This document shows, in pieces, positions 18,141 to 63,935 of a DNA stretch of 64,000 nucleotides. A model generated the notes under the pieces. The model made no database searches and was not told the origin of the DNA. It saw only the letters and a list, made by a program, of their open reading frames with translations. The position numbers and the translations under genes were made by a program. How positions within the stretch are numbered: position 1 is the stretch's first letter; each line of letters begins with the position of its first letter. Origin of the DNA: Candidatus Omnitrophota bacterium (GTDB lineage Bacteria; Omnitrophota; Omnitrophia; Omnitrophales; JACQQS01); contig JACQQS010000062.1 in NCBI GenBank assembly GCA_016206925.1, forward strand, positions 9,254-73,253, written 5' to 3'.

Positions 18141-18151
18141 GCGGCATTTCC

Positions 18152-19345: not shown

Positions 19346-19349
19346 AGTT

Positions 19350-20567: not shown

Positions 20568-20598
20568 GACGGTCCCTTCTCGTTGAAGTGCGGGTTAT

Positions 20599-22290: not shown

Positions 22291-24008
22291 TAGATCTCCA
22301 ATAGGGTTCCCGTGTCAGGATCCGGCATAGTCACACGGTAAACTTCTTCCACGCTTGTTTCGCCATGTACTACTTTCCGTATCACACTTTCTCGTAATGT
22401 TGTCATGCCTTCCTTGCGTGCGGTAGCTTTAATGACATCGGCGGTTTCTTGTTTCACGATGAGATCATTAATTTTTGGCGTGAGCAGAAGAACTTCGGTA
22501 ATAACCGATCGGCCGGCAAACCCCGTTCGACGGCATAACGCGCACCCGGCAGGTTTATAAAATGTATATTTCCGATCCTTGGGAAGTCGGAAATCGATGA
22601 TCAACTTTTCCGGAGGTGTGTAGGTTTCGCGGCAATGGTGGCAGAGGCGTCTAACAAGCCTTTGCGCGGACACCATCAAAACGGATGAGGTTATGAGAAA
22701 CGGCTCGATTCCCATGTTGGTCATTCGGATAATGGAACTTGCGGCATCATTGGTGTGGAGAGTGCTTAGAACCAGGTGCCCCGTCAATGCCGCTTTAATA
22801 GCAATGTCCAGCGTTTCGACGTCGCGTATTTCGCCGATCATGATGATGTCGGGATCTTGCCTTAGGATTGATCTCAAGGCCGCTGAAAACGTGAGGCCCA
22901 CGTAGTCGTTAGATTGAACTTGATTAACTCCTTCCACTTTGTATTCGACGGGATCCTCAACGGTTGTTATGTTTTTGGTTTCATCGTGCAGGTGCTGCAA
23001 AATGGAATAAAGCGTCGTGGATTTTCCGCTGCCGGTCGGACCGGTAACCAGAATCATGCCGTAAGGCCGCCGCGCGCATTGTTCAATCCGCTCCAACTCT
23101 CTCGGATGAAATCCGAGGCCTTTGAGATCCTGTTGGTGGGTTGAGGTATCCAAAATACGTAGGCAAACTTTTTCTCCAAAGCTGGTTGGGATAATGGAGA
23201 CACGTATGTCAATCATCCGGTCAAGAGCCTTGATCCTAAACCGGCCATCTTGGGGGATGCGGTGTTCCGCAATATTCAGATTGGAAACCACTTTTATGCG
23301 TGAAACAAGGGCTTCGGCCATACTCTTGGGAGGCGCTTTGATATCCTCCAATAATCCGTCAATGCGGCAGCGCACGTGCAGCTTTTTCTCCCAGGGTTCG
23401 ATAAATAAGTCGCTGGCTTTTCTGCGCACGGCTTCGGTCAAAAGAGCGTTCGTAATTTTGATAACGGGTGTTTCAGTGGCCAGCCGGATAAGCTCGGACG
23501 ATGATTTCCCCGAGTCGTTTTGCTTTTCCGTGGCTTCATCAATCAATTCCTGCATGGACTCGTTTCCGATAGAAACCTCGCTGTAACACCGATCAATGGC
23601 CTGCCGAATCACTTTTGGAAGCGCGATAACCGGCGAGACGGTGCTATCCGTTATCGAGCGCAAGTCATCGAGAAGAAGTACATCGGCAGGGTTAATGATG
23701 GCTACCGTGATCGCACCGTTTGCGCGGCTGATCGGAAGAACACCGTGCCGTTGCGCAAATCCCGTAGGAATTAATGACAGGAGATCGGCGGGAACCGAAA
23801 TGCTGGAAACATCCACAATGGGATATCTGAAGAAGTCACTCAAAAATGACAAATAGCTTTCGCTGCTGATCCATTCATGGTCCAGGAGACATTCGGTTAA
23901 GCTTTCGTCCGGTGGACAAACTTTTCGGGCGCGCTCCAGGCGCTCTGCTTTGAGTAGGCCCTGATTTACCATCATCTCAAGCATTTTGTTGGACAAGACT
24001 TCTTTCAT
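22290..24008 (-). CDS. GspE/PilB-family secretion ATPase, copy 1
   Basis: Walker A GPTGSGKSTTLYSIL. CHHCRETY...CALCRRTGFAGR tetra-Cys motif. 572 aa. Its stop overlaps the start of copy 2. Confidence 0.9.
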   Translation of the reverse strand: MKEVLSNKMLEMMVNQGLLKAERLERARKVCPPDESLTECLLDHEWISSESYLSFLSDFFRYPIVDVSSISVPADLLSLIPTGFAQRHGVLPISRANGAITVAIINPADVLLLDDLRSITDSTVSPVIALPKVIRQAIDRCYSEVSIGNESMQELIDEATEKQNDSGKSSSELIRLATETPVIKITNALLTEAVRRKASDLFIEPWEKKLHVRCRIDGLLEDIKAPPKSMAEALVSRIKVVSNLNIAEHRIPQDGRFRIKALDRMIDIRVSIIPTSFGEKVCLRILDTSTHQQDLKGLGFHPRELERIEQCARRPYGMILVTGPTGSGKSTTLYSILQHLHDETKNITTVEDPVEYKVEGVNQVQSNDYVGLTFSAALRSILRQDPDIIMIGEIRDVETLDIAIKAALTGHLVLSTLHTNDAASSIIRMTNMGIEPFLITSSVLMVSAQRLVRRLCHHCRETYTPPEKLIIDFRLPKDRKYTFYKPAGCALCRRTGFAGRSVITEVLLLTPKINDLIVKQETADVIKATARKEGMTTLRESVIRKVVHGETSVEEVYRVTMPDPDTGTLLEI

Positions 24009-24013
24009 GGAAT

Positions 24014-24562
24014 TTACTCAGTAGACGGCGGACTCTGGGTAGGTTTCTCTGTTTTCTTCTCGCGTGCGACGCGAAAACTTATTTTGGATACGTTCACACT
24101 TGCATTGTTGTCTTCAGGAAATTCGAGCTTGTAGTATCGCTTGATGGCTTTTTTTATCTCCGTTACCGTGGCGACAAACGGCTGCACATGACAGCCTGAG
24201 GTCGATTCAATGGTTTTAATCGCTTGCGCGTTGCTCGGATCAGACATGACCACGGTGAGAATGCTTTGAACTCGGTCAATTGGAATGCATAGATATTGAC
24301 GAACGGTATCTATCGGAAGGGCTTTTACCGCTTGCGGGTTTATTTCGAAGTTATCTATGGGAAGATAAGGAAAATTGAATTGAGTGGCGAGCGCTATGAC
24401 AATATCTTCTTCTTTCACAAAACCAAGGCGAATGAGAATTTCGCCGAGCAGCCCGCCCTCCGATTCTTGCGTCTTGAGTGCCTGGTTGAGCCCGCCTTCG
24501 TTTAGGATGCCGTACTCAAGAAGAATTTCCCCCAGTTTCTTATGTCCCGCTTCCTTGGGCAT
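24014..24562 (-). CDS. stand-alone T2SS-E N-terminal domain protein (MshEN-like; candidate c-di-GMP receptor)
   Basis: 182 aa. Two tandem motifs matching the MshEN consensus: KLGEILLEYGILNEGGLNQALKTQ and LLGEILIRLGFVKEEDIVIALATQ. They are followed by a GSPII_E_N-like fold region (PIDTVRQYLCIPI...VVMSDPSN). Confidence 0.7.
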   Translation of the reverse strand: MPKEAGHKKLGEILLEYGILNEGGLNQALKTQESEGGLLGEILIRLGFVKEEDIVIALATQFNFPYLPIDNFEINPQAVKALPIDTVRQYLCIPIDRVQSILTVVMSDPSNAQAIKTIESTSGCHVQPFVATVTEIKKAIKRYYKLEFPEDNNASVNVSKISFRVAREKKTEKPTQSPPSTE

Positions 24563-39427: not shown

Positions 39428-39460
39428 AATTTAACCGCTTAGTGCAGGTTTACCTGCTAA

Positions 39461-39497
39461 TTTTCCCCAAAAAAGAAAAGTGGGCTTTTGGCCCACT
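39461..39497 (-). terminator. rho-independent terminator-like hairpin (AGTGGGC-TTTTG-GCCCACT) followed on the minus strand by TTTCTTTTTTGG. Lies 35 nt upstream of the nusA start, so it could also be a leader attenuator
   Basis: Read directly. It lies between ORF 39621..39902 / the giant gene and nusA. Confidence 0.5.
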
Positions 39498-39620
39498 TGT
39501 GTGCGAAACCAGAGTTAAAGTTGTCGTTATTTTAGTAACCAAAAGGACTTATGTCAAGCACTTATAGGGCAAAATGCGGACGAAGCGCCAAGGCGGCGTA
39601 AGGTTGGCTAAATAAGAGAA

Positions 39621-39902
39621 TTAGGCGCTGACGGATATGGCCTGAAGCGCGGTTATGTAGGCGGCATACACAGCGCTTAAGTTACTCATAAGCGAAGCGG
39701 TGGGCCGGTACGTGGTGAAGCGCACCGCGTCTTCCGTGGGGTCCAACCAATTCCGGCCGAGCGCTTCCGCGAATCCTAGTCGCGCCAAGTGTAAACCGAT
39801 GAAGTTGAGCGCGGCATATTCCTCATAGGACCTTCCGGTTCCATCCAATATGAGCTTGGGGACTTGATTCAGCAGCCCGCGTTGATTGAGCGCTTCAATC
39901 AA
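39621..39902 (-). CDS. hypothetical small ORF (93 codons) downstream of giant gene 1; TTG start, no visible RBS
   Basis: ORF-track entry only. The start codon is TTG (reverse complement of caa at 39900-39902). No family recognised. May be non-coding 3' UTR. Confidence 0.25.
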   Translation of the reverse strand: MIEALNQRGLLNQVPKLILDGTGRSYEEYAALNFIGLHLARLGFAEALGRNWLDPTEDAVRFTTYRPTASLMSNLSAVYAAYITALQAISVSA

Positions 39903-39916
39903 TTCGGGCGATGCGA

Positions 39917-42900
39917 CTATGCGGCTTTGGCAAAAACTTCAACCATTTCAATTGCGTCACTGATCATCTCAAGCACGTTTGTCGTGCTGAGGACGCGAAT
40001 CCCGATTCGCTTCATCTGCTCAACCCCAGCCATAGGAAAATTTTCTCCCGCCAGCAAAAGAACGGTATTAGGGTGTAGCAGGGCATATGCCTGTAGCGTG
40101 CCTAAAACATTTTCATGCCTTCCGCTTAATGCCGCAACGATCGGGTCGTTATAGTGGTTCGCTAAAGAAAAAGCATCGGGGTCATCGGTGACTATAACAA
40201 TGTCGTCCAAAGGAACGCCAAAAACGCCCGCAACGATTTCCCGTTGGTTCTGGGAGAGCTCGGGTAAGCCGATCAGATAAATCTGTTTAAATCCGTCAAG
40301 ATGGAAGACAAAATTAACCGTCCGCCGCGCAGATTTTCCGGCTTCAAGAATTTGATTTAGAAACAAGGAATCATCGATAATGAGGGAACCTACTTTTTTC
40401 CCCGCCGTGCCGGGTAAAAGAATTTCACCGAGTTCCACGCTAACTGCATCCATTGCCTCCTGGCCTCTTTCGCGTATTATGAGCGGATTACTGCCGGCAA
40501 CTAATTTCAAAGTTTGGCTTAGTTCTGATCCGAAACCAGTACCATCTGTCGTGCCGGCGTCGGTGTCAAAACTGCCGGAATGCTTGTTCAAAGCTGCCGT
40601 GAATATTTCGTTGTCAACAAACCTGAATTGTTTATCACCATCGACCGAAGCTTCAATAAAAATCTCTTCGCCCTCAAGCCCCAGCCGTGCGTAGTATTTT
40701 TCTTGCAAGGCAAAACTCTCTTTAAAATCCACTGCGCGAAGCCTGCCCAGTTCACCGCCGCGGGCTCCTGCGTTAAGAAAATCCTGATGAATTTGTAGTA
40801 CCACGTCCCATGGCTTATTTAAGGCGAACAAGTCAGCTGTTGTTTCGCCCAGACGGCCCCACGCGTCAAAATATGCTCCTATAAGCGGCGCGATTTTAAA
40901 ATCGCCTTCAATCTTTAGACGGGATATTGCAGCAAACTGGTGAATTCTTCTGACCGCGGGTTCGACATCGCGGAGCCATGCGGCCGGAGCCTTGGAGATT
41001 AGATTATTTGATCGAATGGGGGCAACGCGGAATTGCATGCGAGTGGCCTGGGAGGTTGTGTTAATATCAACCACGGTGAATACCTCTGGGCGAGGAGGTG
41101 AGTAAAACGGGATCTGATAGATTCCCGCATATCGAGCAGGAGTTGGAAATTGAAATTGGGACAAAGTTCGTATATCCGATCTCTTTTGTTCCAGCATACG
41201 CCTGGCTTCCCTAAAGTCGAAGGGCTCGCCCCACTGATTCAGAGGCGGGTAACCTTCTTTGTTGATTAACTCTTCTGCAATATCAATTAATTCAACCTGA
41301 GCTTGGACAAATCGTTCAGCCGCTTCTCCGCTGTCCGGATTATAAACGTCGCCGCTGGTTGTTGAATATATTGACTCACGCGTAGCATCGTAGCCCATGT
41401 CAAGTCGGTTTCGAAGCAGTTGGTAAGGCAGATAGTGTTTCCACAAGACATCGGAAAGATCATCAATAACATGGGACAAAATTTGGATAGGATCGGTGTG
41501 GTCTTTATATCGAAATCTATCCGGTCCCGCGCCTCGATCTATTTCACGGAGCGGCTGAAAAAGCTCACGCAGTAAATCGCTATTGGCGACATATCTTGAT
41601 TCTAAGAGGTGATCAAAAAAGGCACTCAGCCAATCTTGAAGGAAATCTAGTTCCGGTATCGGGGCTTCATAGGAATCTTTGCCAAATTCCCTCGCTTGAT
41701 TGAAATCGTAAGCCACAAGTTGAAGGTAATAGCCAAAATATTTTTTAAAACTCTTTAAGGGATCCCGCTCATTGAACAAATCAATATTGCTGCCCGCATC
41801 GGTATAGTAACCTGTGGCCAGCGTATTGTCCGGATTCAAGGCGATATGGACGTTCGCAATGTGATGCGTAAGAATTTCTGCAGCGTTCCAACCCATCTGT
41901 TGGGCAGCCGATCCCGGATCGAAATCTTCGCCACCACCCTTGAAAATATGCCCTATCCGTTGATTTGTCGGAGAAGCTCGGCCAATAATTTCAAAGCGCG
42001 TGTCGTTGCCCGGATAACGGAACCGCAAGCGAAAAAGTGCGCGCGGCGCAGCGCCGTTAAAATAGGCGTCCGTTCCTACGAGTCGCAGCAAGTGGATAAC
42101 GTCTCCTTCGCCGCCAGCTTGATGACCCGGATAAAGCGCGCCGAGATCGACGCGCGTGACCACATGTTGCCCGGCTTCGTTTTTATCTCCGGCGCCGCCC
42201 TGAACGACGCGCCCGCCTGTCGCGCGAATGTTTTCGCCTCTACCGCCCATGAAAGGCCCCGCTGATTTCAAGTCAACGATAAATTCAGCGCCCATATCTG
42301 AAACAATCAGGACAGGTTCTCCCGAATCCATCCAAAAAAGCATTCCACCCCGTCCCGGAGCTACTGTATCCGGGTCGAGGTTGACTTCCATCATGTATCG
42401 AAGTTTGGTTTGTGCTTCGCCATCGACGGTGGAAAGAATCTTGCCCTGCCCCCACACTTCTTTTGTAAGCCATTCACGTAATTCCCAAGGCAGCCGCATA
42501 AAATCCTCATATAATTCCACCTGGAGATCTTCAACGGGCACGAGGTGGAGAGGCACTTCAAGGGAGAATTTCGTCCACACATCCGGAATAGTCCGCTTGC
42601 TCTCCTGCATGTCGCCGACCCACTTTACCGTAATGCGATTGGAGTAATCATCTGGATCTGTATGGCGTTGCATTCGGCCGTTATGATCCCTTCGGTAAAT
42701 ATGACTTACAAGGAATTTACCTTTGAATCCCAGCTTATGAGCGCGATCTTTAGCCCAGTCAGGTACTCGGGGCGAGCGTTCACTTATTCGAAGGTCGGGT
42801 CTTTCTTGCTGCGTGCGTTCATCGCGCGCAATATCGGACCGCACCCGATCCAGATGGGGTGAAGTAAATAATGCTTCTAATGATGCACCGGTTTGGCCAA

Positions 42901-45900
42901 GGATTCCATGCTGCATTGTAGCGAGACCTTGAGTTAAACCGATTACGCCGGATGCAGGAACGTCGGAAACTATTGTTGACATCGTCTCACCTAAACTAAT
43001 TGCCAGCTTACCTTGTGCCCTTAATGTGGTGCTAACAGATCTAACGACGGGCGACAAAACTTTCGACTGGAGAAATTCTTCGGCCTTAATTTTTGAGTCT
43101 TCTTGCCACGAGAAAAGATCGTCCTCAATATCTTTAATCGAACGCGTTGGCTTCGGAATTGAGGAATCTGCGGCATCTTGATGAAGCCTTGCGTCAGCCA
43201 ACTCTTTTTCCAACTCGGCTGTGTGCCGGCGTCTTCCGGTGGCGTACAGTAAATTCTGCGTAGCCTTTTGCCTGTCATACTCATACCTAAGACGCGAATT
43301 ATTTATCTTCTCCCCTTCGTTGGCAAACGCCTTCCAATAAGCCAGCTTGGCCCCTGCAGTTCGGATCGCCTGATCGATTTCATCCTGCCGGCTAAGGTCA
43401 GGCTCCGATTTCATGGCCCCGAGCTCTTTCAGGAGCGAAGTTAGATGGGCAATTCTTTCATTCGCAGTGATTTGCTTGAAAAGAGGCTGCGAACCGTTAT
43501 AGATATGCCCCTTTCCGAATGTTTCAATCCGCCAGTCTAAAGCGAGAAATATGCGGTAATCCGCATCTGAAAAGAAATCATAGGTATCAACAATTATCTT
43601 GTCTTCAAGACCCATCATGTGCGCTACGGCTTTTATAGGGTCGAGGCCCGGGTACGTTTTCCTCCGCGTCCCCGCATCGGGGTGTTCGCGGCGTTTATGA
43701 ACAGGTTGATTGGAGCCGACGTATTCAAAATGACGTGTAGCAAAAACCAGTGCGTCGAGTTTCGGATGGAAGAATTCCAGCGGATTTTCCACCTTGCGAA
43801 AGGGTATCGAATTAAGGTCATCTTGGTTCAGGCGACCGCGCGCTTGCGATGATGCGCCTCTAGGTTGCTGTAAGGCAAGTTCTGGCCAAAAATCAGTATA
43901 AGGATCTGTGGCCTCTACGCGGCCTCCGAAATGCGCCATTTCGCGGACGACATGCTCTGAACCACTGTGCTTTGTGTTGCCGGTTCCTTCTTTATACCCT
44001 GTTCCGAGAACGCCTACCGTTATTTCCGAAAACTGCACATGCATTTTGCCCGTAAATTGATTAAGCAGCTTCCACGTGACGTCTTTTGCTCTCTCCTGGA
44101 GCATGGATGATGCGAGAAGCCGCGATTGAAATATCCGAAAGATTTGGTCATCCTCCATTTCGAAGTAAGTTCTTAACCCAACTACTATTTTCAAGAGTGC
44201 TTCAGGAGTACAGCTTCCACCGGGACACATGGAGGGAGCGCGCCGCATTCCCATGCGGGACCTTGGGTGAGCGCGTACAATGCCTTCGATTATTTGAAAT
44301 GCGTCGACCCCAATTACTTCTGCGGTTTTAAGATAGCCATCTAAAATTTCAAGCAAATCGTAAAACCAAGATAGTTCCAAAAGCTTCAAAAATTCAACAT
44401 CCTCGGATACATTCCAGACTTTATAAGTAAAACCGATTTTTTTAAAGTAGCGCTCGAGATCTTCCCGCGCGGCAGGTGAAAATGCGGCGCTCTCCCTTCT
44501 AAAATCTCGTAAGGATCGCAGTTCTTCCGCTCCGGGCGCCAAACGTTGAGGTGAATAGGCTAGGCGGACATACGGTGCGCCACCTTCTTTAGCTTCTGGA
44601 AATCGATCGCGCATTACGCGGTCTATCGCAGGCAAAGCTTCTTTCGACACGAACCCAGGTTGTACCGTGCTCTCGATCACTACAAGAGCGTCCTTGCGAA
44701 TGAGCGAGCCGATGGTTTCAAGCAATTTTGCGGTGGGCTGAGTGTTAATATGGGCTTGCTGAAATGTGCCCCGTGGAGGTGCATGCATTTCCAATTCAGT
44801 CTCTACGAGAACGACATCTGCTACCGCCATCACTTCAGGCAAAAATGTCGCGGCAATTACACCGTCACTGCGCGCCGTGCGAAAATTACGAATCATTTCC
44901 TGGTCGGTAGTTGGATGTGGTAACAGCCCGTCGTTTATAAAGTGAACTGCATATCCGGATCTGGAAGTTGGTCTTTGGTAGGCTATAGAAAAATAGGGCC
45001 GTTCTTGTGCGGAGATAGTTCCGCGGAATCGATTGCCCTCCTGCTGGTCGAGCGGGGCTCTCGCTTCGGATGCCAATGCCATATTGGCTTGCGCCACATG
45101 TCCGGCGCCTACATGGACAGAAATCTCGCGGCCTAAGGCACGCTGAATAACAATCTCAGCCATCAGATTAATCCTCATCTGCTCAAATTCGGCAGCATCG
45201 AAAGGCAGTGTGAACGATCTCCCCTTGGGAGCCGTGGTGAGAGTACCCGCTTCAGGGAGCTGATCCAGACTTCTGTATTCAGGAATCTTGTAAGGGCCGA
45301 GCTTTGTGCTACGGTCGGCTTCAATTAGAGCGACAAATGTATCAATGGCCAATTCCCCTCTTGAAGCGAGAAAACGCGAAAGTTCCATTTCTCCGCTCCT
45401 GTCGGATCCGGGATTAAACCACCGAAGCATGGCTTCTTCCACATCGGTTCGGATAGTTTCAGGCGAGATGGGCGGCGCGTCCGAACCAAAGCCGCGTGCC
45501 ATGCGATCTGTAAGTTCTCTCAAGCGTTCCTGAAAGAACTGTACGGTTGTTGAATTTGCAAATGTTCCATTGCCGATAGATTCAATGCGAACTGATTGGG
45601 GCGACTGCGCATAGTTTAGCCATTGCGAGCCGGATTTTCTCATGCCCGGCGACTCATCACCGCGCCAAAGGATGACATCGGTAGTTCCAGGGAACTGCGC
45701 AAAGCGATCACCGATATCATCCGGGACGTTTAAAATCGGATGTTGCGGGCCATATAATCCGCGCATTACTTTGTTCAAAGGTTGCACGGGCGTACGAATG
45801 AGGATTAAATGCCGTGTGTTAGAAAATTCAGGCTCTGACGCAACAATGGGCAGGAGTTGGCCGCCGTGTTCTTGTCCAATCAATATGATTTTTGGCGGTT

Positions 45901-55300: not shown

Positions 55301-58300
55301 CAGGATTTAGCGTCGCTGCAGCAAGTTGAATTTCCGCATGATGTGCGGACGCTAGAAAACGGTCTCTTCTTTTGGATATGAACTCGGCTAATTTCGAGAA
55401 GCGATCACGCCCTAGAGGTTTTCGGATGCGCGCTAAGGTGACATGAACTACGCCGGGCGCGCCTCCCGTTGGTGAAGTTTTTCCGGCAAGCGCTTTGCTA
55501 AGCTCTGTTCGAAGAGAAACTAGATTTAAGTCACGCACGAAACCTTGAGCGATTAAGCTGCCACCTGGGCTTAGGGTAATTCCCTTCCAATCTATGTCGA
55601 ACGGTTGCGATAACACGATTGCTGAATTTATGTCAGGAATAAGCGCTTGGATGGCGTTGTCAGAAAGGTTAGCATCGTAGACATCGTGCGGAATATAGAT
55701 ACTTAGATGAAGGTTTTCATTTGGTATCCAGAGGATTTCGTCGTTCGACCAAGTAAATTCATAACCCAGGACTTCCTCGTGCATTTCCTTACGAATTTTC
55801 TGTACCTGAGTAATGAATGGTATGGACTCCGACAAGTGTGCGAGGACGTTGGAGGTTTTACCAACGCGAGGATTTCCGTCTTCGTCGTAATGTCTGGGAT
55901 GGCCTGCAAAATCCTTTGGATCAAAATCGCTCCTAGATGTACCAATGTTTGTTAAGTTGTTAAATATTTCATCGTAGCGCTCTAAGAGTTTTTTATTAAA
56001 TTGTTCGATCGTACCGAATCCAGCCGACGATCGCGTAATTAGCGGCGCTGGCGCTTCTGCTGATTCTCCTTCGTGCGGTTGAGGGGCAACTACATCTGGC
56101 GGTTGCGCTGCTTCCCCTTGGGCGGGCGGCGACCGTCTCAAAAACTTCCAAAGCCAAATGGTGAGGAGCAACGTAAGATAGTAGAAGGTATCACTCCCAA
56201 CAACAATTGTTCTGATCGTGGCTGTCTGATGACCCACAAAGTTATATAGTTTTACAAAGCTGTCGGCCATGTTTGCGCTGCCGATCAAGTAAGCACCCCC
56301 GATAAGACCGGCGGTGAGCAGTACTTTTAAGGCGGCAATCGGTGCGACGTGCTTAAGGTAGTAAAGGACGTCACTCTCTTTACGTCCTCCTCCCAGAAGT
56401 GCGTGTTTGATACTTGGATATTCGTTTGTCGTGTGCCAATGGAGGAACATTTGCGTCATAAGTAAGCCCGCGCTGTTCAAACCCATGAGTGCGACAAGAA
56501 CGCGGACGGGATCGGGCAATGTGCCGGAGACGGCAAGCGCAATTACGATAACCACCACTAATATATTGAAAAGGGCCATCCCGGCTGGAAAAACCGGTTT
56601 TGTCTTCGCTTTTATTATTTCCAAGTGAGGACGCTCTCCGGTGAACTCAACCTCGTAGTCTCTGTACCCATTAACCGTGATCACGGCGGTTTTTTTGGCA
56701 CCGTTGTAATCTGTAACTCGTGTATCACGGAGACGGACCGATTGTGTTTCTGGATTATCCGGATCAAACCGATTCAGGGCCGGCTCTAGTTCCGATGTTC
56801 TAATCGAATGATCCCTCTTCTCTTCCAACTCAACAATTGTTTTCGAATCTTGCGTCATAAACAGCAAAATACTCGCTGTGACCAGATAGACCGGAGCATA
56901 TATGAAAAGAGTCGATAGTAAACCCGTTTTTGGCGCAAAACCAAAAAAAGGAATATAGCCAGCAACGGCGGCGACAGCGAGCGGTAACGCCAGCATTAGA
57001 GGAATCATACCTGCGGGCGAAAGCGGCATAGAACCCGAGATCATCGAAAGCCAGAATGCTTTGAACGGATTTGCTGAAGTCTCGCGTCTGTAGTCCTTAT
57101 TCAGCTCCTTCGTCCTGGCGAGCGACATGTTTGGGCGCCCAGCCAAGATACGGTAGATTTGGAAGATCAAACCCTGCCGCAAAGGCTGGGCAGATACCCA
57201 GACGGTCCAAAGATAAAGGAAAATGGAGCTGAGCCAAGGGAGAGCTCCGATAGGTAAGGACATCCATCCGAGCGAAAGCGTGGTAATGACTGCGTCTTGA
57301 TGACTGAGGTAGATGAGGCCCAAAAGAAAGCCTGCTGTAAATAACGGACTGACAACAGCGTGGCGTGAGGAAATTAAGAAATCAATATATTCCCCTTGCC
57401 GAAGGTTCCGGACTTGTTTGCTTACCAGCCGTTCAACGATAGCATGACCAAGCCAAGCTGTTTCAGCTTTTACAATAGTCCACATCGCCTTGCCAAGGAT
57501 GAGGAAAAACTCCAGTGTTTTCACAAGATATGCGATGGTGGACTTTACTAATTCAATGGGGAAGTTAATAATATACCGAATAGCGTTGAGCAGTCTGAAA
57601 GAAATCATTCCAAACGTGATTCTGATAAAGCCGATCAGACCGAGGCCTCGTTCGTACCGGACGACATCATAACGTCCCAGCTCCGGAAGGATGCCTGCGT
57701 TTTGTAACCAGTCCAATATCAATTGATTGTCTTCGTTGCGATAGTCAATTTCACCCCACGATTTCGCAATCCTGCCGCTGGAGAGAACGTACGCAATGCC
57801 GGCCAACACTCCGAGCACCATGTTAATCAGTTCGAAGAACGCCTTACCGAGTTTGGTAAGAAGGATAATTGGAATCATACTGACGAGCAGCAAACTGTCA
57901 GCAATAGGGAGGGGAATAATACTCGGAGACAAGTAAGATCCGCCGCCGATCAAGCTTGGTAAAAGCATATCGCGGAATACGTTCTCCAAACCAAGAAAGT
58001 AAGGTACCCCCCTGGAGTAAAACCCCAGAATCAGATACGCAGAGAAGAAAAGAGCTGTAAACGCTCCGCGTGGCGGGATAAACTTAGAATAAAGCGAGCC
58101 TAAGTCGACCGCTTCATCATCGCTTTCCTCGGTTGATCTGACGTAGGGACTAATGGCGGGTGTCCCGGTTACTGTGTTGTAAATATATTGTGCGAAGCTC
58201 ATGGGAACACCGTAAAAAAGCTTCATGGTTCCCTTCTTCAAGGCTTCCCACTCGCCGCCGATCCAGCGAGTTCCCTGGATAATCATATCTTTAATGGTGT

Positions 58301-61300
58301 AATTCACGTCTTCCCACGCGGCAAGAAAAGGAAGATATGCCGTTTTTGTTATTCCATATTTGTATGAATCTTCAATCTGAGCCTCGGCCGGCAGTATTTC
58401 GCCGCCAAAGAGCCGCGTGCGGTAAGTTATGCCGCCCAATGTGATTCTTTGGCCTTGCAAGCTCTCGCGGAGAAAGTCTTTCCGCTCGAGGCCATTCCAC
58501 ATCTCAGGAAATTCCCTTTCATTCCGTTTGGGAGCCGAGCGTCCAAGGATGATTCGTTGGCCACCGATGGTTAATGCGTATTCGTAGAATGACCGTCCCT
58601 GACCTTCCGGATCTTGAATGGAGTGGCCCGCATGCCCGGTATCTGGATCTATCTCAAATTTCACGTCATAACCGATGTACCGTTTCCTTTTGTGCTCGAC
58701 GGTAGGTTGATCAATAGTGAAGTCTGTAGTTTGTTCGAGCTTCGCCGTTTCTTCTGGTGTCAGAATCCAGCTACCGTCTTCGCTGATGAACACGCGATCC
58801 TGCGCAGTCATGATCGTGCCCACGCGGCGATTCTTCGCATCGTAGAGGATGATACGGGGATCCATAAGTTTTCCGATGAAATCGGCCATGCGTCCAATGA
58901 ACTTGCCAAACATGCTGAAACGGCCGCGGGCAAATGTTTCGCCGACGGGCAGAAAATAAAGCATTTCGCGCGCGACTCCCGGCATCCAGCTTATGGGTGT
59001 GAAGACCGTGTTAAAAGCGCGTAAGAATGGCTGGAACATTGAATAACTGCGGTTGGTCCAATGCTCCGAAATTTCCAATGTCGATCGCACAATTCCATCA
59101 GGCCAAAGATTGTCACCGTCACTCACAATTTTATATGGATATCGCCCGCGGAACTCGTAGAAGGTTGTATCTATTAGGGTGCGGTTTCCTTTCAAAATAG
59201 CTTCGGTTACCGTTGTGATCTGACGTTCGGAATTATCGGGATCGGCTACCCCACCCTTGTATTTTCCAGTCAATCCGGCCTTCTGGAGATCCCACACATC
59301 TTGCATTTCACCTTCCTGCATTTTGATCAGATCCTTAATGAATTGCCGGTAACTATACCCTTTAATGTCATACGCAACATTCAGCGGGAGCCCAAGTTTC
59401 TTTAAAGCCTCTTCACCTTCTTGCGGAGTCTGAAACGTGTTTATAAATTGATCAACAAGATCTCCGTCAGAGATACGAGGCTCTTCAGCGCCAAATCCTG
59501 CGGGCGGGCGGTTCTGACCCAAGCGTTGTTCCAAGGCGGCACGCAATTTGGGTATATTGATGTAACCCCAGGCAGGCAGTGCAGGATCTTTAACAAAGTT
59601 ATCGCGATACGCTTCGATGTATGTTAGGTTTCCGTAACGGTCGTAGATAAATTCATAGCTAACGACTCCAATTTTTGCTGATTTGGGATTTCCATTTGGG
59701 CGGCGTGTAATATCTTCTGGTTTAGCTTTTTTTAGAATCGCATTTTTACGCCACGGCGCAACGCGTCGCGTATGATGCAGTTCATTCCTTCGCGTGTATT
59801 CCTCGCCTGTATATTCCGAAGCATATAACTGACCTCGAAATCCAAGAATTGTTGCATCGTCATCCTGGCCGGATTTTCGCAGGTGGCGGTTGGTACGGTG
59901 GATAAACTTGAGATCCCGCTTGAACTGGGCAATGTGGGCGCGCAGAACGGCTTCGACAAAGGCGCCGGTTCCCTGTGTATTTGGAATATGTGGCAGGTCT
60001 TTTTGAATCTGCTCGAAGATTCCAACCCACAAGCCTACAGCATCGTGAAATGAGCCAAAATTCTCTTGAAGCGATTTTTCTGTCTTCTCATCAATTGGCC
60101 GAACCGATTCGCTCAATTGTCTCCAGTCATCAGGTGTGAGTACCGCGCCAGCACGCTGTCTTAGATGGGCGACGACATTCTCAAGGGAAGTTTCCATAAT
60201 GCTTCCAATTTTTTCACGCATCTCTTCCCTCACACGCGCCGTTTCCATCAAAACGGAGAAATTGTTGCTTGCATCCACGATAGTTGTTGTAAGAGTATGA
60301 TTTGGATCCGCATTGCCTAGGTGCGTGCCGTGTCCCTGTTTCTTAAGTAGTTCGGCCATATCCTCTGTAGTCTCGGAAATCCTGTAGAATTGACCCATTG
60401 TTGCATGTCCAAGCGGTATTGCGCTGACAAGCACACGTTTTCCGCCAACCACTACGCGTTTAGCAAAACTGTGTGCCTTAAAATATGCGCGCCGCCGTTC
60501 CGACCTGTCTCTTTCCGGTTTCGCATCGTCCGTCGTTTTGTTCATCGACCCATATAAAATCGAACCGAGAATGTAGGAGAGGAATCCCGCAACGATATCT
60601 CCGAGATTCCAGTAGAGCGGAAATGTCACAAGCGTTCTGAGAGCCGCGGCCTCAAAATTGGAAATCTCGGGAACCATCAGTATCCAAGACCAAATGGTTG
60701 TGATCAAAGCAAATCCGATCGAGACAGGGGCATAAAAGAAAAGAAAGATGGGACCTGTAGTTCGCAGCGCCCTCCAGTTCTTGTATCGATAGAGCGGACT
60801 GATAGTCCATTTGAGTATTTTTAACCCAATCAATGCAGAAATGAAGTAGGAAGGGTAAAGAAATGCCAGGATGGGCTGGCCGTAATGCTCGGTCATTAAC
60901 TGCGGCAGTATCGTGGTAAGCAACCCCACGCTGACAGCTTTTAAGAATCCCGGAAGGAAGCTGGGCAAAGCGCCATACATCAAGCCTATGAATGTGGAGA
61001 AAATCAACGCACCCACTATTGTCAAGATGGTATCGGGGAGAAGTCGGTAATTTTCAAGATGTTTCTTAATCTGAGCCGTTATATGGAATAGCCGCTGGAT
61101 TCGATACTCACGGTGCGTAATCAAAGTATGTATGTATTTTAATAAAAGCAAAGCGAACGGAATCGAAATGGACAGTATAGCCCCAAGGTTCAGTCTTTGA
61201 ACTCCGGCCGCCGTCTCAAGACCTTGTTTTATGTCCACCGGCATCAAAGGAGAGATGAAATCGAACAAATGTCCTGTGATTCCATGAACCAGATAAATTC

Positions 61301-63935
61301 CTAGAGCAGCGACTGCTGAAGCAGTGAGAATACCTGCCACTGACTTCAAGACTTTGCCTCTGATCGCTAATATCTTTGCCGCAAGGTATCGCATCGGGAT
61401 CCTGGCAAAAATCAGCGCTACGCCTCCAAAAACAAAAGCCGTCCACTTGTGCTGGAACATCCATTCAACCATGCTGAAGAAGGCGCGCCATAGACCTTGC
61501 GATATTGGGAATTCCCGAATTGCATCATTTATGCCCAACAGGAAAACAATAATGGTTAAGGCCGCACCAAGATAAAGCCGTCTAGAGAAAAGACGGCGTG
61601 AGAATGTCTTTCTTTTGGCGAAAAAGGTGTAGACATGCGGAAGGACAAGAGCTACAAACCCGCCTAATGCGACGTAAGCCATAATGAAAGCGTTTGTTTT
61701 CTGGGTATGCCGCTCTTCGCGCGCGATGATATCATCACCGACCGCCCTTGCGCTCTGGCGCGTCTCTTGAATAGCGGGAGGCCCCATGCGTTCGAACATA
61801 AACTCAAGGAGTCCTTGCAGCTTGAAGAATGCGTTTGAGGTGATATCAGCCTCAGGCATGCCCATACGTTTGAGCGCGTCGGCATGCACAAGCTGTAAAC
61901 TTCTCAACGTCTGAAAGTGCTCGAGTCTTTTCGTTATTCGTTCCTTAAGTTCGTCTTTGTCTGAGAACGAAATAAGCGGCCACTTTGCCCTCTCTTTTGG
62001 TGGCTCATTATCGTGACCGGAGATACCAAGAAGATATCTTCCTTGACTCATGAAGAAGCCAGCGACGCTACCAGATTTGTCGAAGAAATCGAACTCTTCC
62101 TTCTCTTCTAAAAGTTCTTTCATGTCGGGTCCCAGCAGGAGTCCGGTGTTAAAACTCTCACGTACCTGAGCAAGGCGCTCGCGTAACGGCATTTTCTTCC
62201 ACTCATCCAGCTCCTTATAGGTTGCTGCGCTCCACCCGCTTAAGCCTAATAGGTAAGTCAGTTCGCCAATGAAAAAGCCAACCTCCTTCTTGTTGGTGAA
62301 ATCAAGTGCCTTACCGCTTGCTTTGTGCTCATTAACCTTCTGCTCAATTGTTGTGTGCGTGCCTTCACCAAGTGATTCAACAGCTCCAAGCATTGCAAGA
62401 ATCAGCTCGAAAGTTTCCTCGCGCTCCAGAGTATGAGCGGGCAACGCTTCTTCAATTTCGCTAATCCATTTTGTTGTGTACTCCCAGCCGTTGAGCTGCC
62501 GTGTAATGGCCCAAGCAATCACAAAGCCACGGTAACGCCGGTTCGTAATAAAACTTTCTTGTCCGGGTGGGACTTTCTCACCGAAAAGTATGTCGCTCAG
62601 CTTCGAAGCTTCCTTGAAGGCGGTTGCGCGTTTTTCCTTGTCGTTCAAGACTTCTGTTAAAAGGGTAACACTCCTATTATCTTTGGCCTTTTCTTGAAGC
62701 GGTGGTTCTACGACACTTCGGAAACGCTCCTGAAATTTCTTAATCTGTTCTACTTGTATCCCATCTGGATCGAGTTGACTTTTGTCAGCTAGTCCGTCAG
62801 GCAGTTGAACACTTTTACCTAACTGAGCGTATATTTTTTTAACGGTTTCGTAGCCTGAGAAATTATTGCGCATAATCTCGCGGGTGATCTCTGCTCGCGC
62901 CGCTTGATGCGCCAGTGCTTGTTCAATAAAGGTATAAACTTTTCTAGGAGGTATTTCTCCTGTTTTTGCATCGCGGCTAGGGGTGCCATAGGTATTTACT
63001 CCGCCCGTCGCAAGATAGAGGTGAAAATTCGTGCTTGCCCACGGATCGCCTGTGGCAGCCAAAATGGCTACCGCGTACCCTGCGACTTTGGAGTCATCCG
63101 TCGTTAGCCCATAGTTCTTGTACGGCTCACGCATCGCCAGAATGCTTACATGCTCACCAAATTTCTTGGCTATTTCCGTAGAATCCACCGTTGGTGCGGC
63201 ACCAATTACTTGGTAATTCATTTTGCTCCGCCGCTCTTTATTTAGAGCGAGATACGACTGAACTGCGCGAGTCATAATATCCGGTAGGAAAGCATGTTCT
63301 CCGCTAACGGGGTAGTAAATCACCCAGGAGTAATCAAAAGCGCTTTGGACAAAAGTTTTCGGCACTGTAATGCCATCGATAGTTGTCCAGTCGAGTCGCA
63401 TGCGTTTAAAGGCGCCGTCAGATTTTAAATAACCGAGTGAAAACAATTCCGCAATCAGGTATCCGGCTTCTGACATGATGTATTCATATGTCGCAGGTTT
63501 GCGCGGATAAATCTCCCCTTCAATAAGTGTGGTTTCGCTGCCCCATTTCGGGACAGATTTGCTCTGGACGAGTTTGCCACTTGAATCAAGCTCAACCTTC
63601 ACCGTCACTTTTGTTTTTAGACGGCCTGAAGTTTCATCAATAAAATGCTCATAGTTGTGCCGCTGAGGATCGTTGAATCGATCTATGGCAGTGACGATCT
63701 TCTCTTCGATAGAATCTGCTGCCGCGTTTTTTTCATAGTAGTTTCGAATCACATTGAGCTTGGTAGTCAGCCAAGCCATGTCGATAGGTGAGAATGAAAC
63801 AGTTCCGGTAACCGGAGCACCCGGAATGAAGCGAGTCTTTTTGTCAATGATTATCTTGGGCACGATTTTCCCATTTGCATAGTCATACACCAACCATTCC
63901 GGAAGGATTCCCTCATAGCGTGGCACCTGTTCCAA
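52344..63935 (-). CDS. giant polytopic membrane multidomain protein (at least 3863 aa): ~750-aa N-terminal soluble region, three TM clusters (~22 helices), embedded 2H-phosphoesterase-like, DUF218/YdcF-like and HD-phosphohydrolase-like domains, ~400-aa C-terminal region
   Basis: Uninterrupted 11.6 kb ORF. The first start-like codon is TTG at 63935, three codons after an in-frame TAG. 2H-like: NLHLSIYI ... VVHVTLARI. DUF218-like: ADLILALGSY ... KRILVAGG ... ENRSTNTGANIQNAAQLL ... IILIQFPLGQ. HD: ILWHAVVLHDYGRLV. Confidence 0.8.
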   Translation of the reverse strand: MEQVPRYEGILPEWLVYDYANGKIVPKIIIDKKTRFIPGAPVTGTVSFSPIDMAWLTTKLNVIRNYYEKNAAADSIEEKIVTAIDRFNDPQRHNYEHFIDETSGRLKTKVTVKVELDSSGKLVQSKSVPKWGSETTLIEGEIYPRKPATYEYIMSEAGYLIAELFSLGYLKSDGAFKRMRLDWTTIDGITVPKTFVQSAFDYSWVIYYPVSGEHAFLPDIMTRAVQSYLALNKERRSKMNYQVIGAAPTVDSTEIAKKFGEHVSILAMREPYKNYGLTTDDSKVAGYAVAILAATGDPWASTNFHLYLATGGVNTYGTPSRDAKTGEIPPRKVYTFIEQALAHQAARAEITREIMRNNFSGYETVKKIYAQLGKSVQLPDGLADKSQLDPDGIQVEQIKKFQERFRSVVEPPLQEKAKDNRSVTLLTEVLNDKEKRATAFKEASKLSDILFGEKVPPGQESFITNRRYRGFVIAWAITRQLNGWEYTTKWISEIEEALPAHTLEREETFELILAMLGAVESLGEGTHTTIEQKVNEHKASGKALDFTNKKEVGFFIGELTYLLGLSGWSAATYKELDEWKKMPLRERLAQVRESFNTGLLLGPDMKELLEEKEEFDFFDKSGSVAGFFMSQGRYLLGISGHDNEPPKERAKWPLISFSDKDELKERITKRLEHFQTLRSLQLVHADALKRMGMPEADITSNAFFKLQGLLEFMFERMGPPAIQETRQSARAVGDDIIAREERHTQKTNAFIMAYVALGGFVALVLPHVYTFFAKRKTFSRRLFSRRLYLGAALTIIVFLLGINDAIREFPISQGLWRAFFSMVEWMFQHKWTAFVFGGVALIFARIPMRYLAAKILAIRGKVLKSVAGILTASAVAALGIYLVHGITGHLFDFISPLMPVDIKQGLETAAGVQRLNLGAILSISIPFALLLLKYIHTLITHREYRIQRLFHITAQIKKHLENYRLLPDTILTIVGALIFSTFIGLMYGALPSFLPGFLKAVSVGLLTTILPQLMTEHYGQPILAFLYPSYFISALIGLKILKWTISPLYRYKNWRALRTTGPIFLFFYAPVSIGFALITTIWSWILMVPEISNFEAAALRTLVTFPLYWNLGDIVAGFLSYILGSILYGSMNKTTDDAKPERDRSERRRAYFKAHSFAKRVVVGGKRVLVSAIPLGHATMGQFYRISETTEDMAELLKKQGHGTHLGNADPNHTLTTTIVDASNNFSVLMETARVREEMREKIGSIMETSLENVVAHLRQRAGAVLTPDDWRQLSESVRPIDEKTEKSLQENFGSFHDAVGLWVGIFEQIQKDLPHIPNTQGTGAFVEAVLRAHIAQFKRDLKFIHRTNRHLRKSGQDDDATILGFRGQLYASEYTGEEYTRRNELHHTRRVAPWRKNAILKKAKPEDITRRPNGNPKSAKIGVVSYEFIYDRYGNLTYIEAYRDNFVKDPALPAWGYINIPKLRAALEQRLGQNRPPAGFGAEEPRISDGDLVDQFINTFQTPQEGEEALKKLGLPLNVAYDIKGYSYRQFIKDLIKMQEGEMQDVWDLQKAGLTGKYKGGVADPDNSERQITTVTEAILKGNRTLIDTTFYEFRGRYPYKIVSDGDNLWPDGIVRSTLEISEHWTNRSYSMFQPFLRAFNTVFTPISWMPGVAREMLYFLPVGETFARGRFSMFGKFIGRMADFIGKLMDPRIILYDAKNRRVGTIMTAQDRVFISEDGSWILTPEETAKLEQTTDFTIDQPTVEHKRKRYIGYDVKFEIDPDTGHAGHSIQDPEGQGRSFYEYALTIGGQRIILGRSAPKRNEREFPEMWNGLERKDFLRESLQGQRITLGGITYRTRLFGGEILPAEAQIEDSYKYGITKTAYLPFLAAWEDVNYTIKDMIIQGTRWIGGEWEALKKGTMKLFYGVPMSFAQYIYNTVTGTPAISPYVRSTEESDDEAVDLGSLYSKFIPPRGAFTALFFSAYLILGFYSRGVPYFLGLENVFRDMLLPSLIGGGSYLSPSIIPLPIADSLLLVSMIPIILLTKLGKAFFELINMVLGVLAGIAYVLSSGRIAKSWGEIDYRNEDNQLILDWLQNAGILPELGRYDVVRYERGLGLIGFIRITFGMISFRLLNAIRYIINFPIELVKSTIAYLVKTLEFFLILGKAMWTIVKAETAWLGHAIVERLVSKQVRNLRQGEYIDFLISSRHAVVSPLFTAGFLLGLIYLSHQDAVITTLSLGWMSLPIGALPWLSSIFLYLWTVWVSAQPLRQGLIFQIYRILAGRPNMSLARTKELNKDYRRETSANPFKAFWLSMISGSMPLSPAGMIPLMLALPLAVAAVAGYIPFFGFAPKTGLLSTLFIYAPVYLVTASILLFMTQDSKTIVELEEKRDHSIRTSELEPALNRFDPDNPETQSVRLRDTRVTDYNGAKKTAVITVNGYRDYEVEFTGERPHLEIIKAKTKPVFPAGMALFNILVVVIVIALAVSGTLPDPVRVLVALMGLNSAGLLMTQMFLHWHTTNEYPSIKHALLGGGRKESDVLYYLKHVAPIAALKVLLTAGLIGGAYLIGSANMADSFVKLYNFVGHQTATIRTIVVGSDTFYYLTLLLTIWLWKFLRRSPPAQGEAAQPPDVVAPQPHEGESAEAPAPLITRSSAGFGTIEQFNKKLLERYDEIFNNLTNIGTSRSDFDPKDFAGHPRHYDEDGNPRVGKTSNVLAHLSESIPFITQVQKIRKEMHEEVLGYEFTWSNDEILWIPNENLHLSIYIPHDVYDANLSDNAIQALIPDINSAIVLSQPFDIDWKGITLSPGGSLIAQGFVRDLNLVSLRTELSKALAGKTSPTGGAPGVVHVTLARIRKPLGRDRFSKLAEFISKRRDRFLASAHHAEIQLAAATLNPGQLIGDESLNPVANFHLGFGARLNDLNTLATFLAQRDQLPEKADLILALGSYDMRVPIETARLFKEGKAKRILVAGGAGRLTGFPNAAAYKRGVKLLVDAGINVQVARQMLKGWFRGRKHIKKEADLFREVLIALGIQDKNKLGEDIILVENRSTNTGANIQNAAQLLNDKTLHDKIASIILIQFPLGQKVASATFQKQFMIHYRGQEPNVYNYAPPLAKLEDLSRQELDEAIVLATGSIVRLKAYGPKGRGFLVDVEISGNVQDAFERLASPAQIAEFYHGGYASNAELQLKLEEKQKGLHKTITFEKVKQFYKAAQTAKSPSELKAVYDKYLGIFDWEALVPITGEAWKAADGTTAKMKSHHDAMIALVDALEQGGDIAARALHERALEPLDLDLIQKIVAQYQNLSTSERRILWHAVVLHDYGRLVTNGPQHAQIGARLVNNLLEHLDSFSTQLSAEGIQPFSPQDMDQLIEYTGRELEFGSLHWGETIPANVARGLRRQGIDVSKFLRTMSIVAGIIDPASVGAGRLRNTHLQNVEILSDAHSLSALQRHWSFIRLNALFHDEKLEYPFTPDILSAPALSSRVPHIFTELVYRPDIKTALRNVAFQKFIMLFRNIAERGTTGPENAAKWLILLLGLHERNKINFVGLSIDFGEFVQPFIQILEGIDLNKVAAGEITANLHEDTLVVSDAVTKQTYFSIPYSKTSDRNGIELNMPEFKGPESGFGIAAPAPKPQPNLDQIFNEAESWMGKWANAAAGKDLAFQTSVLADSRRSIAPEEQKLADALVSLLAAQPIQSIGAIHGKVVHAVDFNSGLITADQLGDSSFWQNYFGTQLPTHRVTVYNAPANIALPEPFSEFVEITTETTPASTRTGWNNADRIVVSSNILSSYGSAELEEKVVQVLVDIGDIESKVSAERLATIRALGMQFGRLLAFDLLSGELGRVAAYRVAGTRAYVFNSATVTAILSHFIDEAKKYEAIARAA

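Follow-up and report, generated by a model that had tools for sequence, protein, structure and literature searches.

A nucleotide-sugar-dehydrogenase-like module with replaced catalytic residues, a candidate pseudoenzyme, within a long Omnitrophota protein

We analysed a 64,000-nucleotide stretch of a Candidatus Omnitrophota bacterium genome (assembly GCA_016206925.1, contig JACQQS010000062.1, positions 9,254 to 73,253 of the forward strand; hereafter the window), which encodes on its minus strand a long protein with an embedded nucleotide-sugar-dehydrogenase-like module. Judged by its sequence, the module is a genuine descendant of a uridine diphosphate (UDP)-N-acetylhexosamine (HexNAc)-type nucleotide-sugar 6-dehydrogenase. 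Six active-site residues are highly conserved in human UDP-glucose dehydrogenase (hUGDH), namely Thr131, Glu161, Lys220, Asn224, Cys276 and Asp280 (Egger et al., PMC3129169); the module carries T1108, Q1148, K1202, L1206, C1260 and A1264 at these positions, and three of the six are thus lost. We lean towards the view that the module is a pseudoenzyme, with its fold under selection for a structural, dimerising or ligand-binding role and its two-step oxidation lost. The gene and the module are placed as follows.

39917..47938, minus strand: host protein gene, NCBI MBI4431458.1, 2,673 amino acids (aa), annotated 'hypothetical protein' in a Candidatus Omnitrophota metagenome-assembled genome (MAG)
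43499..45172, minus strand: nucleotide-sugar-dehydrogenase-like module, aa 940-1497, with N-terminal Rossmann, central helical and C-terminal UDP-binding-type domains

The host gene lies in one very long open reading frame (ORF; window 39917..47989, minus strand, 2,690 codons from a TTG), within which the ATG at 47938 is the probable true start, giving a protein of 2,673 aa in agreement with the deposited entry and with the starts of the orthologues. Among 5.8 billion clustered proteins searched, two orthologues only were found, here P0002 and P0003, with 64-65% identity; together with the host protein they form the three orthologues, or window clade, referred to below.

Fold and active-site residues of the module

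The NCBIfam model TIGR03026 (nucleotide sugar dehydrogenase) matched the whole protein with an E-value of 1e-15 and the excised module with 61.6 bits and an E-value of 6e-17, the scores of 57-62 bits not reaching the curated cut-off of 189.8. Two Pfam models likewise stayed below their thresholds (PF03721, 17.1 versus 27; PF03720, 24 versus 30), and PF00984 was not detected in the host protein by the Pfam scan. A phmmer search of the PDB recovered UDP-N-acetylmannosamine (ManNAc) dehydrogenase 4r16 (E 3e-10) and CalS8 (E 1e-7). The AlphaFold2 model of residues 940-1500 (predicted local distance difference test score, pLDDT, 72.9; predicted template-modelling score, pTM, 0.71) gave 4r16, CalS8 and hUGDH as top Foldseek matches, with BceC also matched, the best E-value being 9e-23, reported with a template-modelling (TM) score of 0.77 in a range of 0.70-0.78 when normalised to the target. 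Taken together, the profile matches and the predicted structure indicate that the module is a complete three-domain nucleotide-sugar-dehydrogenase fold, with homology far beyond chance, to which three insertions have added ~130 residues relative to the 420-aa enzymes. This fold and this enzyme family are already known. The residue states of the module were then read at the following motifs.

44195..44236, minus strand: Cys loop PSMCPGGSCTPEAL, aa 1252-1265, with Cys1260 at the nucleophile position
45092..45109, minus strand: dinucleotide-binding motif GAGHVA, aa 961-966, with the third Gly of GxGxxG replaced by Ala in all three orthologues
44969..44989, minus strand: end of strand beta-2, SIAYQRP, aa 1001-1007, with Gln1005 where most members have a ribose-binding Asp
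44666..44674, minus strand: EST motif, aa 1106-1108, with Thr1108 (hUGDH Thr131) kept, as in 23/23 of the family
44531..44551, minus strand: PQRLAPG, aa 1147-1153, with Gln1148 instead of the thioester-hydrolysing Glu (hUGDH Glu161)
44372..44395, minus strand: EFLKLLEL, aa 1199-1206, with Lys1202 (hUGDH Lys220, the candidate general base) kept, as in 23/23 of the family
43961..43996, minus strand: YKEGTGNTKHSG, aa 1332-1343, with NTK for the family DTR motif (Asp replaced by Asn and Arg by Lys)

The hUGDH equivalences were derived, via other enzymes of the family, from the motifs EST, PE(F/R), K-x3-N and GG-x-C-x2-K-D and their spacing. The segment MCPGGSCTPEAL (aa 1254-1265, nt 44195-44230, minus strand) fitted the GGxCxPKD loop free of gaps in phmmer, which paired 'psmcpggsctpeal' with 'pgigvgghclpkdp' of 4r16, and in MAFFT, where the module was aligned to canonical enzymes and to 29 family sequences. 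Cys1260 (hUGDH Cys276) is kept, and each of the 30 aligned sequences that span the loop has this Cys. Two positions beside it are changed: Glu1263 takes the place of the Lys (hUGDH Lys279), and Ala1264 that of the Asp (hUGDH Asp280), where other members have K-D or K-E. Further upstream, the Asn that stabilises the oxyanion (hUGDH Asn224), found in 23/23 of the other family sequences, is Leu1206 in the module, and the third Gly of GxGxxG, Ala966 here, is present in 20/23. Gln1005 was not counted as a loss because a Gln at the end of beta-2 is a trait of a whole subgroup, including PDB 3g79 and the free-standing, canonical-looking P0035.

Could the module still be a canonical active dehydrogenase, with the substitutions produced by misalignment? 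The retained Cys, Lys and Thr are all that speaks for this explanation, and its likelihood is negligible. No gap falls between Pro1262 and Gly1271 in any alignment of the Cys loop, a register shift to recover the K/D pair fails in that the nearest Lys is K1267 at +7 rather than +3, and the changes from Asn to Leu, Glu to Gln and DTR to NTK all sit within ungapped conserved blocks.

The original prediction, made from the letters of the window, had aligned this loop with GGxCLPKD at about nt 44200-44235 and had read a retained Cys with Lys replaced by Glu and Asp by Ala. The multiple alignment that it proposed as a check upheld its register and the absence of K and D, and the homology to the dehydrogenase family on which it depended is borne out by the TIGR03026 and Foldseek matches given above. 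Its span of 43880-45142 was too small, since the 3' limit at 43880 omits the last third of the UDP-binding domain. It had also described the upstream NAD-binding and central-domain motifs (NAD, nicotinamide adenine dinucleotide) as intact, which is contradicted by GAGHVA, Gln1148 and Leu1206, with NTK in addition. Finally, the substituted Lys that it named the general base matches hUGDH Lys279, a structural residue that stabilises a loop and helps to form the NAD pocket (PMC3129169), while the candidate general base, K1202, is kept.

The closest sequence matches to the module are the UDP-HexNAc-type dehydrogenases (WecC/P. horikoshii 4r16, TviB, WbpA-like enzymes and CalS8 4xr9), which have the same three-domain fold. 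The motifs EST, K-x3, GG-x-C and a final D-x-x-D are common to both, and the module keeps their Cys, central Lys and Thr. By contrast, it scores 61.6 bits where 189.8 bits are called for, has Gln, Leu, Glu and Ala for their Glu, Asn, Lys and Asp, carries GxGxxA and NTK together with its extra residues, and is embedded in a protein of 2,673 aa with a signal-like N-terminus.

One change in the loop adds a residue rather than removing one. Cys1255 is an extra Cys specific to the window clade, where it substitutes a conserved loop Gly, is invariant in the three orthologues and creates a CxxxxC arrangement with Cys1260. In an oxidising extracytoplasmic compartment, a disulfide between the two could lock the former active-site loop, either as a structural staple or as a redox switch on a catalytically dead scaffold. 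The confinement of Cys1255 to these three sequences, its invariance there and an N-terminus that resembles an export signal are in keeping with such a bond, whereas two Cys five positions apart may occur by chance, other degenerate lineages retain the Cys without a partner, and structural support is absent, the loop being modelled with pLDDT <50. We therefore rate the disulfide as improbable.

Selection was judged by the amino-acid conservation profile and not by the ratio of nonsynonymous to synonymous substitution rates (dN/dS), which is unsuitable for comparing the window with the P0002 locus because synonymous sites are saturated at ~65% protein identity. The family-conserved positions were defined as the 45 alignment columns in which >=85% of the 23 other family sequences share a residue, and the module matches 38 of them. 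Six of the seven changed columns are fixed across the three orthologues (G966A, N1206L, R1241H, K1263E, D1338N and R1340K), and all of these except R1241H, five of six, lie within known cofactor, substrate or catalytic motifs, while the Gly, Pro and Asp positions that define the fold are retained. All residue states listed above are identical in the three orthologues, at ~65% identity overall. Invariant columns make up 74% of the module versus 57% of the rest of the host protein, and only residues 1800-2200 are more conserved than the module. Read from the aligned sequences, this pattern of changes is the signature of a retained scaffold whose chemistry appears to have been abandoned or altered, not of general decay.

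These data bear directly on whether the module is a functionless fusion relic drifting toward loss, as the disappearance of several catalytic residues and the family-model scores under threshold might suggest. A relic is unlikely because the residue states are fixed, the conservation of the module is above average and the P0002 neighbourhood is syntenic; the 38 of 45 family-conserved positions kept, the intact ORF in three orthologues and the conservation of the surrounding cassette across distant lineages point the same way, and we consider this explanation very improbable. What was found instead is a homologue of an enzyme family in which essential catalytic residues are gone and conservation lies above the protein average, the combination that we took as the working definition of a pseudoenzyme.

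A cassette family of long proteins

The module belongs to a family of ~555-aa dehydrogenase-like modules in long proteins (1,500-5,000 aa) and is part of a larger conserved unit, of which the following parts are named here.

40760..45487, minus strand: conserved cassette, aa ~835-2410, a unit common to the host protein and 11 other long proteins (BLASTP, phmmer and representative search)
41000..42727, minus strand: downstream conserved block, aa 1755-2330, always accompanying the module and the best-conserved stretch of the protein

The BLASTP matches to the 11 proteins span window aa ~835-2400, so that more than the module is common to them, and the cassette opens with a helical lead-in, which is followed by the dehydrogenase-like module, ~250 aa of helical linker and finally ~650 aa without detectable relatives, this last block being present in all full-length cassette members. 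The family surfaced through an exhaustive search of representative sequences, an earlier domain-only search having failed to recover the orthologues. Querying 1.84 billion representatives with the module in HMMER gave 267 matches, and the top 12 after the orthologue aligned over all 557 residues with 35-41% identity, in host proteins of 1,009-5,034 aa and at varying positions. A word-indexed profile search with the module alignment returned canonical dehydrogenases only and no further family members. In species-representative genomes the module was found at eight loci, in MAGs labelled Omnitrophota, Planctomycetia/Planctomycetales, Elusimicrobia and, doubtfully, proteobacterial. The relatives are named 'hypothetical' in the databases, except for one 2,732-aa protein that is called 'UDP-N-acetyl-D-glucosamine dehydrogenase'.

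Comparison within the family separates catalytic residues lost throughout it from those lost only in the window lineage. The hydrolytic Glu is replaced in every embedded module of the cassette family, mostly by Gln, in four by His and in two by Pro or Thr, and is kept in free-standing relatives and in one unrelated embedded copy (P0044). GGYC[IV]PK[ED] is retained in most embedded modules, as are the Lys, Asn, DTR motif and GxGxxG; the loop, Asn and DTR positions of the window clade read GGSCTPEA, Leu and NTK. At least three lineages have independently given up the Lys/Asp pair: the window clade (CTPEA), P0031/P0038/P0046 (CVTNQ) and P0051 (CVIEQ). Neither in these lineages nor elsewhere in the aligned family is the Cys lost. 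Loss of the Asn and an altered DTR are found in the window clade alone. A scan of 185,579 species-representative genomes with a pattern permitting such loops found no other loop of the GGSCTPEA type. TIGR03026 scores follow a gradient from free-standing proteins (P0010, 224.6; P0035, 183; P0033, 153) through embedded modules (P0024, 120; P0021, 102) to the window (61.6). On these sequence comparisons, the three members of the window clade are the most degenerate of the cassette family.

The free-standing proteins of this gradient belong to a subgroup that resembles 3g79, the nucleoside diphosphate (NDP)-N-acetyl-D-galactosaminuronic acid dehydrogenase of M. mazei, and that includes the metagenomic P0033, P0035 and P0010-12. 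They have in common with the module a helical N-terminal lead-in, Gln or Asn at the end of beta-2, a 'QRPS..S.Y' insert, a W-x-E insertion past a C-domain strand and a C-terminal GKGH ending. Unlike the module, they keep Glu, Asn, Lys and Asp (P0033 having Glu for the Asp) and reach 153-225 bits with TIGR03026. Judged by these sequence traits, proteins of this kind are the likely ancestors of the embedded module.

The downstream block has no Pfam match and no PDB match by profile search, and its AlphaFold2 model (pLDDT 53) gave no Foldseek match with E <0.4, only scattered and insignificant kinase hits. Two motifs in it are conserved across the family, DVNLD..ARGRGG and HIALNPDN..YYTD.GSNIDLFNERDP.

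Loss or alteration of the chemistry

The pseudoenzyme reading is favoured because the module lacks the residues that activate the Cys and water, stabilise the oxyanion, hydrolyse the thioester and shape the NAD pocket, and has altered NAD and UDP motifs. A dehydrogenase has been built into a ~1,600-residue cassette of a long protein with an export-type signal, and in the window lineage the NAD-dependent two-step oxidation would no longer be performed. Each substitution can be assigned a predicted consequence: the change of Asp to Ala1264 would remove activation of the Cys and of the catalytic water, that of Asn to Leu1206 the stabilisation of the oxyanion, that of Glu to Gln1148 the hydrolysis of the thioester and that of Lys to Glu1263 the shaping of the NAD pocket, while GAGHVA and NTK are altered NAD and UDP motifs. 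The jobs that such a module may retain are holding the cassette together, dimerising via the central helical domain and possibly binding a nucleotide-sugar or a dinucleotide. To our knowledge, all enzymes of the nucleotide-sugar dehydrogenase family dimerise.

The location of the protein matters to this reading, and the following segment points to export.

47834..47938, minus strand: signal-peptide-like segment, MRVKRRASARRK-FAAFILILLHLCVL-PSSETFG|QS (heuristic call)

This segment has a basic n-region, a hydrophobic core of 14 residues and small residues at -3/-1. The junction reads ...TTIFA|QPS in its orthologue counterpart, the -3/-1 residues being acceptable in all three orthologues, and a signal-like hydrophobic N-terminus is found in most members of the cassette family. 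Beyond those explained as buried strands of the Rossmann fold, the host protein contains no further hydrophobic segment. A type II secretion system (T2SS)/type IV pilus (T4P) cluster lies 16 kb from the host gene (window 4813-24562, minus strand) and encodes a secretin, two T2SSF (GspF-like) proteins, two T2SSE (GspE-like) ATPases, PilM and PilO, together with a ParA/MinD-like ATPase, an extra MshEN protein, a PilS-like histidine kinase and a sigma-54 response regulator. The signal-like segment, the lack of another hydrophobic segment and the nearby cluster make plausible an extracytoplasmic location of the host protein, which the original prediction had suggested for a divergent enzyme. Export through the Sec pathway proceeds with the protein unfolded, and the module would therefore be cut off from the NAD supply. 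Export of a folded, cofactor-loaded protein through the Tat pathway, for which 'ARRKF' in the n-region was considered, was rejected because the twin Arg is absent from the orthologues.

Several observations weigh against the pseudoenzyme reading. The Cys is kept in every member, including the three lineages that have independently lost the Lys/Asp pair. Dead enzymes seldom show this, and it hints at a continuing role for the Cys. The module likewise retains Lys1202 and Thr1108, other Rossmann families can still bind NAD(P) with GxGxxA, and the beta-2 Gln also occurs in the canonical-looking P0035 and in 3g79. The signal-peptide call is heuristic only, and the loop immediately N-terminal of Cys1260 was modelled poorly (pLDDT <50). 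The parts of the relatives outside the cassette include GHMP-kinase, MobA-like and UDPGP nucleotidyltransferase, left-handed beta-helix and aldo-keto-reductase domains. This is a set for activating sugars, and it suggests that real nucleotide-sugar chemistry takes place somewhere in the family.

The main alternative is a divergent enzyme using Cys1260, Lys1202 and Thr1108, which would carry out a single two-electron oxidation or reduction, or would form a long-lived thiohemiacetal or thioester to be passed to another nucleophile, possibly one in the adjoining downstream block. The invariance of the Cys in 30/30 loop-covering sequences, even where Lys and Asp are gone, is what such an enzyme predicts, as is that of the general-base Lys and the Thr. 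The loss of the hydrolytic Glu from all embedded cassette modules makes them a natural equivalent of hUGDH E161Q, in which kcat falls 610-fold and the covalent intermediate accumulates because thioester hydrolysis becomes rate-limiting (PMC3265891). The strong constraint on the module, its constant pairing with the same downstream block and the sugar-activating domains of the relatives fit this explanation too. Set against it, Asn, Asp and the NAD-pocket Lys are lost and the NAD and UDP motifs altered in the window clade, so that even the first oxidation would be badly impaired; NAD(P) would be unavailable to a Sec-exported protein; and no partner chemistry was identified for the downstream block by Pfam, PDB, AlphaFold2 or Foldseek. 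Retention of the Cys together with loss of the hydrolytic base are real arguments for a divergent enzyme, and they apply more strongly to the CIPKE-type relatives, such as the modules of P0021 and P0024, than to the window clade, for which we hold it to be unlikely, with a minor but appreciable chance. The original prediction had left a pseudo-enzyme or binding module and a divergent enzyme side by side; both are still live, and the catalytic losses, more numerous than it saw, favour the pseudo-enzyme.

The likeness to hUGDH E161Q (PDB 3khu, the structure with the trapped intermediate, among the Foldseek matches of the module) is limited to the Gln at the position of Gln1148. The human protein is an engineered single mutant that is otherwise intact, whereas the module has three or four further active-site changes. 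It is conceivable, though we give the idea little credence, that the embedded modules form a natural E161Q-type class that has abandoned thioester hydrolysis, oxidises an NDP-sugar, holds the product as a covalent acyl- or hemiacetal-Cys adduct and transfers it to a nucleophile other than water in the adjoining block. Were this so, covalent sugar chemistry resembling an assembly line would take place on giant proteins that are exported, or on effectors that reach a host cell, and the window clade would be either a specialised user of Cys1260 or a dead regulator or template of active paralogues. Continued use of the Cys would make the family a counterpart in nature to the hUGDH mutant that traps its intermediate, and a possible source of new covalent sugar chemistry.

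Returning to the pseudoenzyme reading, the searchable literature yielded no paper that joins 'UDP-glucose dehydrogenase' with 'pseudoenzyme' and no earlier dead nucleotide-sugar dehydrogenase. Three features appear undescribed in that literature: that the module is embedded in a conserved cassette of long proteins with signal-like N-termini, that the hydrolytic Glu is lost throughout the family, and that the window clade has degenerated further. Long and giant proteins of Omnitrophota and of neighbouring uncultured phyla are almost wholly 'hypothetical', and a ~1,600-residue cassette around a recognisable enzyme fold offers a concrete, testable unit for this class of proteins. If it is a pseudoenzyme, the module also warns against automatic labels such as the one carried by the 2,732-aa relative.

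The host protein resembles the Omnitrophota giant proteins of two preprints (West-Roberts et al. 2023 and a complete-genome preprint of 2026) in coming from the same phylum and in being long and mostly Pfam-dark. An N-terminal signal and a neighbouring T2SS/pilus locus are common to both, a similar T2SS/pilus arrangement having been reported beside Omnitrophota giant genes (bioRxiv 10.1101/2023.11.21.568195), and sugar-metabolism enzyme domains occur in the relatives. At 2,673 aa it is far shorter than the proteins of at least 10,000 aa (10 kAA) on which those preprints focus, neither of which mentions a nucleotide-sugar dehydrogenase module or cassette.

Other domains of the host protein and genomic setting

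The host protein contains a second enzyme-like domain.

45500-46222, minus strand: alpha/beta-hydrolase-like domain, aa ~590-830, homologous to segments of P0020 and P0030, with weak BAAT_C, Abhydrolase_3 and PGAP1 matches

In this domain the nucleophile elbow that reads GRSHG in P0020 is GQEHG (Ser to Glu), and the His of DGHG/DDHG is lost in GNGT (His to Asn), both changes being conserved in the orthologues. As a second fold with replaced catalytic residues, it backs the idea that the host protein may have been assembled from silenced enzyme folds.

The N-terminal domain (aa ~60-480; window 46550-47812, minus strand) gave a weak match to TraB/PrgY/GumN (Tiki-like; E 0.004, below threshold) and is common to other long proteins, P0004-P0009, with GNAT, lytic transglycosylase, PEP-utilising or HD domains. 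Exactly three copies of the tripeptide GFG are present in the host protein, at aa 572, 833 and 2485 (46262-46282, 45479-45499 and 40523-40543, minus strand), against 0.69 expected (p ~0.03). Each is invariant in the orthologues between variable flanks and coincides with the start or end of BLAST segments to other proteins, and so with a domain junction; GFG may be a linker or processing-site motif. In the relatives P0021, P0027, P0031, P0038, P0046 and P0025 the tetrapeptide GLEE is strongly over-represented, with 9, 10 and 9 copies against 0.15-0.27 expected. These copies lie at domain boundaries, for example in P0021 directly before and directly after the cassette, and GLEE has the look of a motif for junctions or cleavage in polyprotein-like giants.

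The window is ordinary bacterial chromosome, with nusA, infB, truB, ribF and pnp downstream of the host gene and a LacI-family regulator upstream of it that is transcribed divergently (window 48268-49320, plus strand). The locus of P0002 (L009) is syntenic, in the order giant gene, LacI, orthologue and nusA-infB-rbfA-truB-ribF-rpsO-pnp, and the divergent arrangement of LacI and the host gene is kept there. In the intergenic region of the window (47939-48267), an imperfect inverted repeat, ATTTCTAGAACT-6 nt-AGTTCTAAAGAT, lies at 48041-48070; together with the divergent LacI gene it hints at sugar-responsive control of the host gene.

A second very long ORF, of 3,863 aa, is found at window 52344-63935 (minus strand), its sole Pfam match being DUF218 near residue 3000, and the LacI gene and two genes for AAA_14/DUF4143 ATPases lie between it and the host gene. 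An 8,092-aa gene occupies the corresponding position at L009. That locus also contains an additional 1,129-aa gene without a Pfam match (18175-21564) between its long gene and nusA, to which just ~490 bp (39428-39916) correspond in the window. Within the secretion/pilus region of the window, two divergent genes encode PMT_2 (ArnT/dolichyl-phosphate-mannose-type) glycosyltransferases, at 12464-14329 (minus strand) and 14360-15985 (plus strand).

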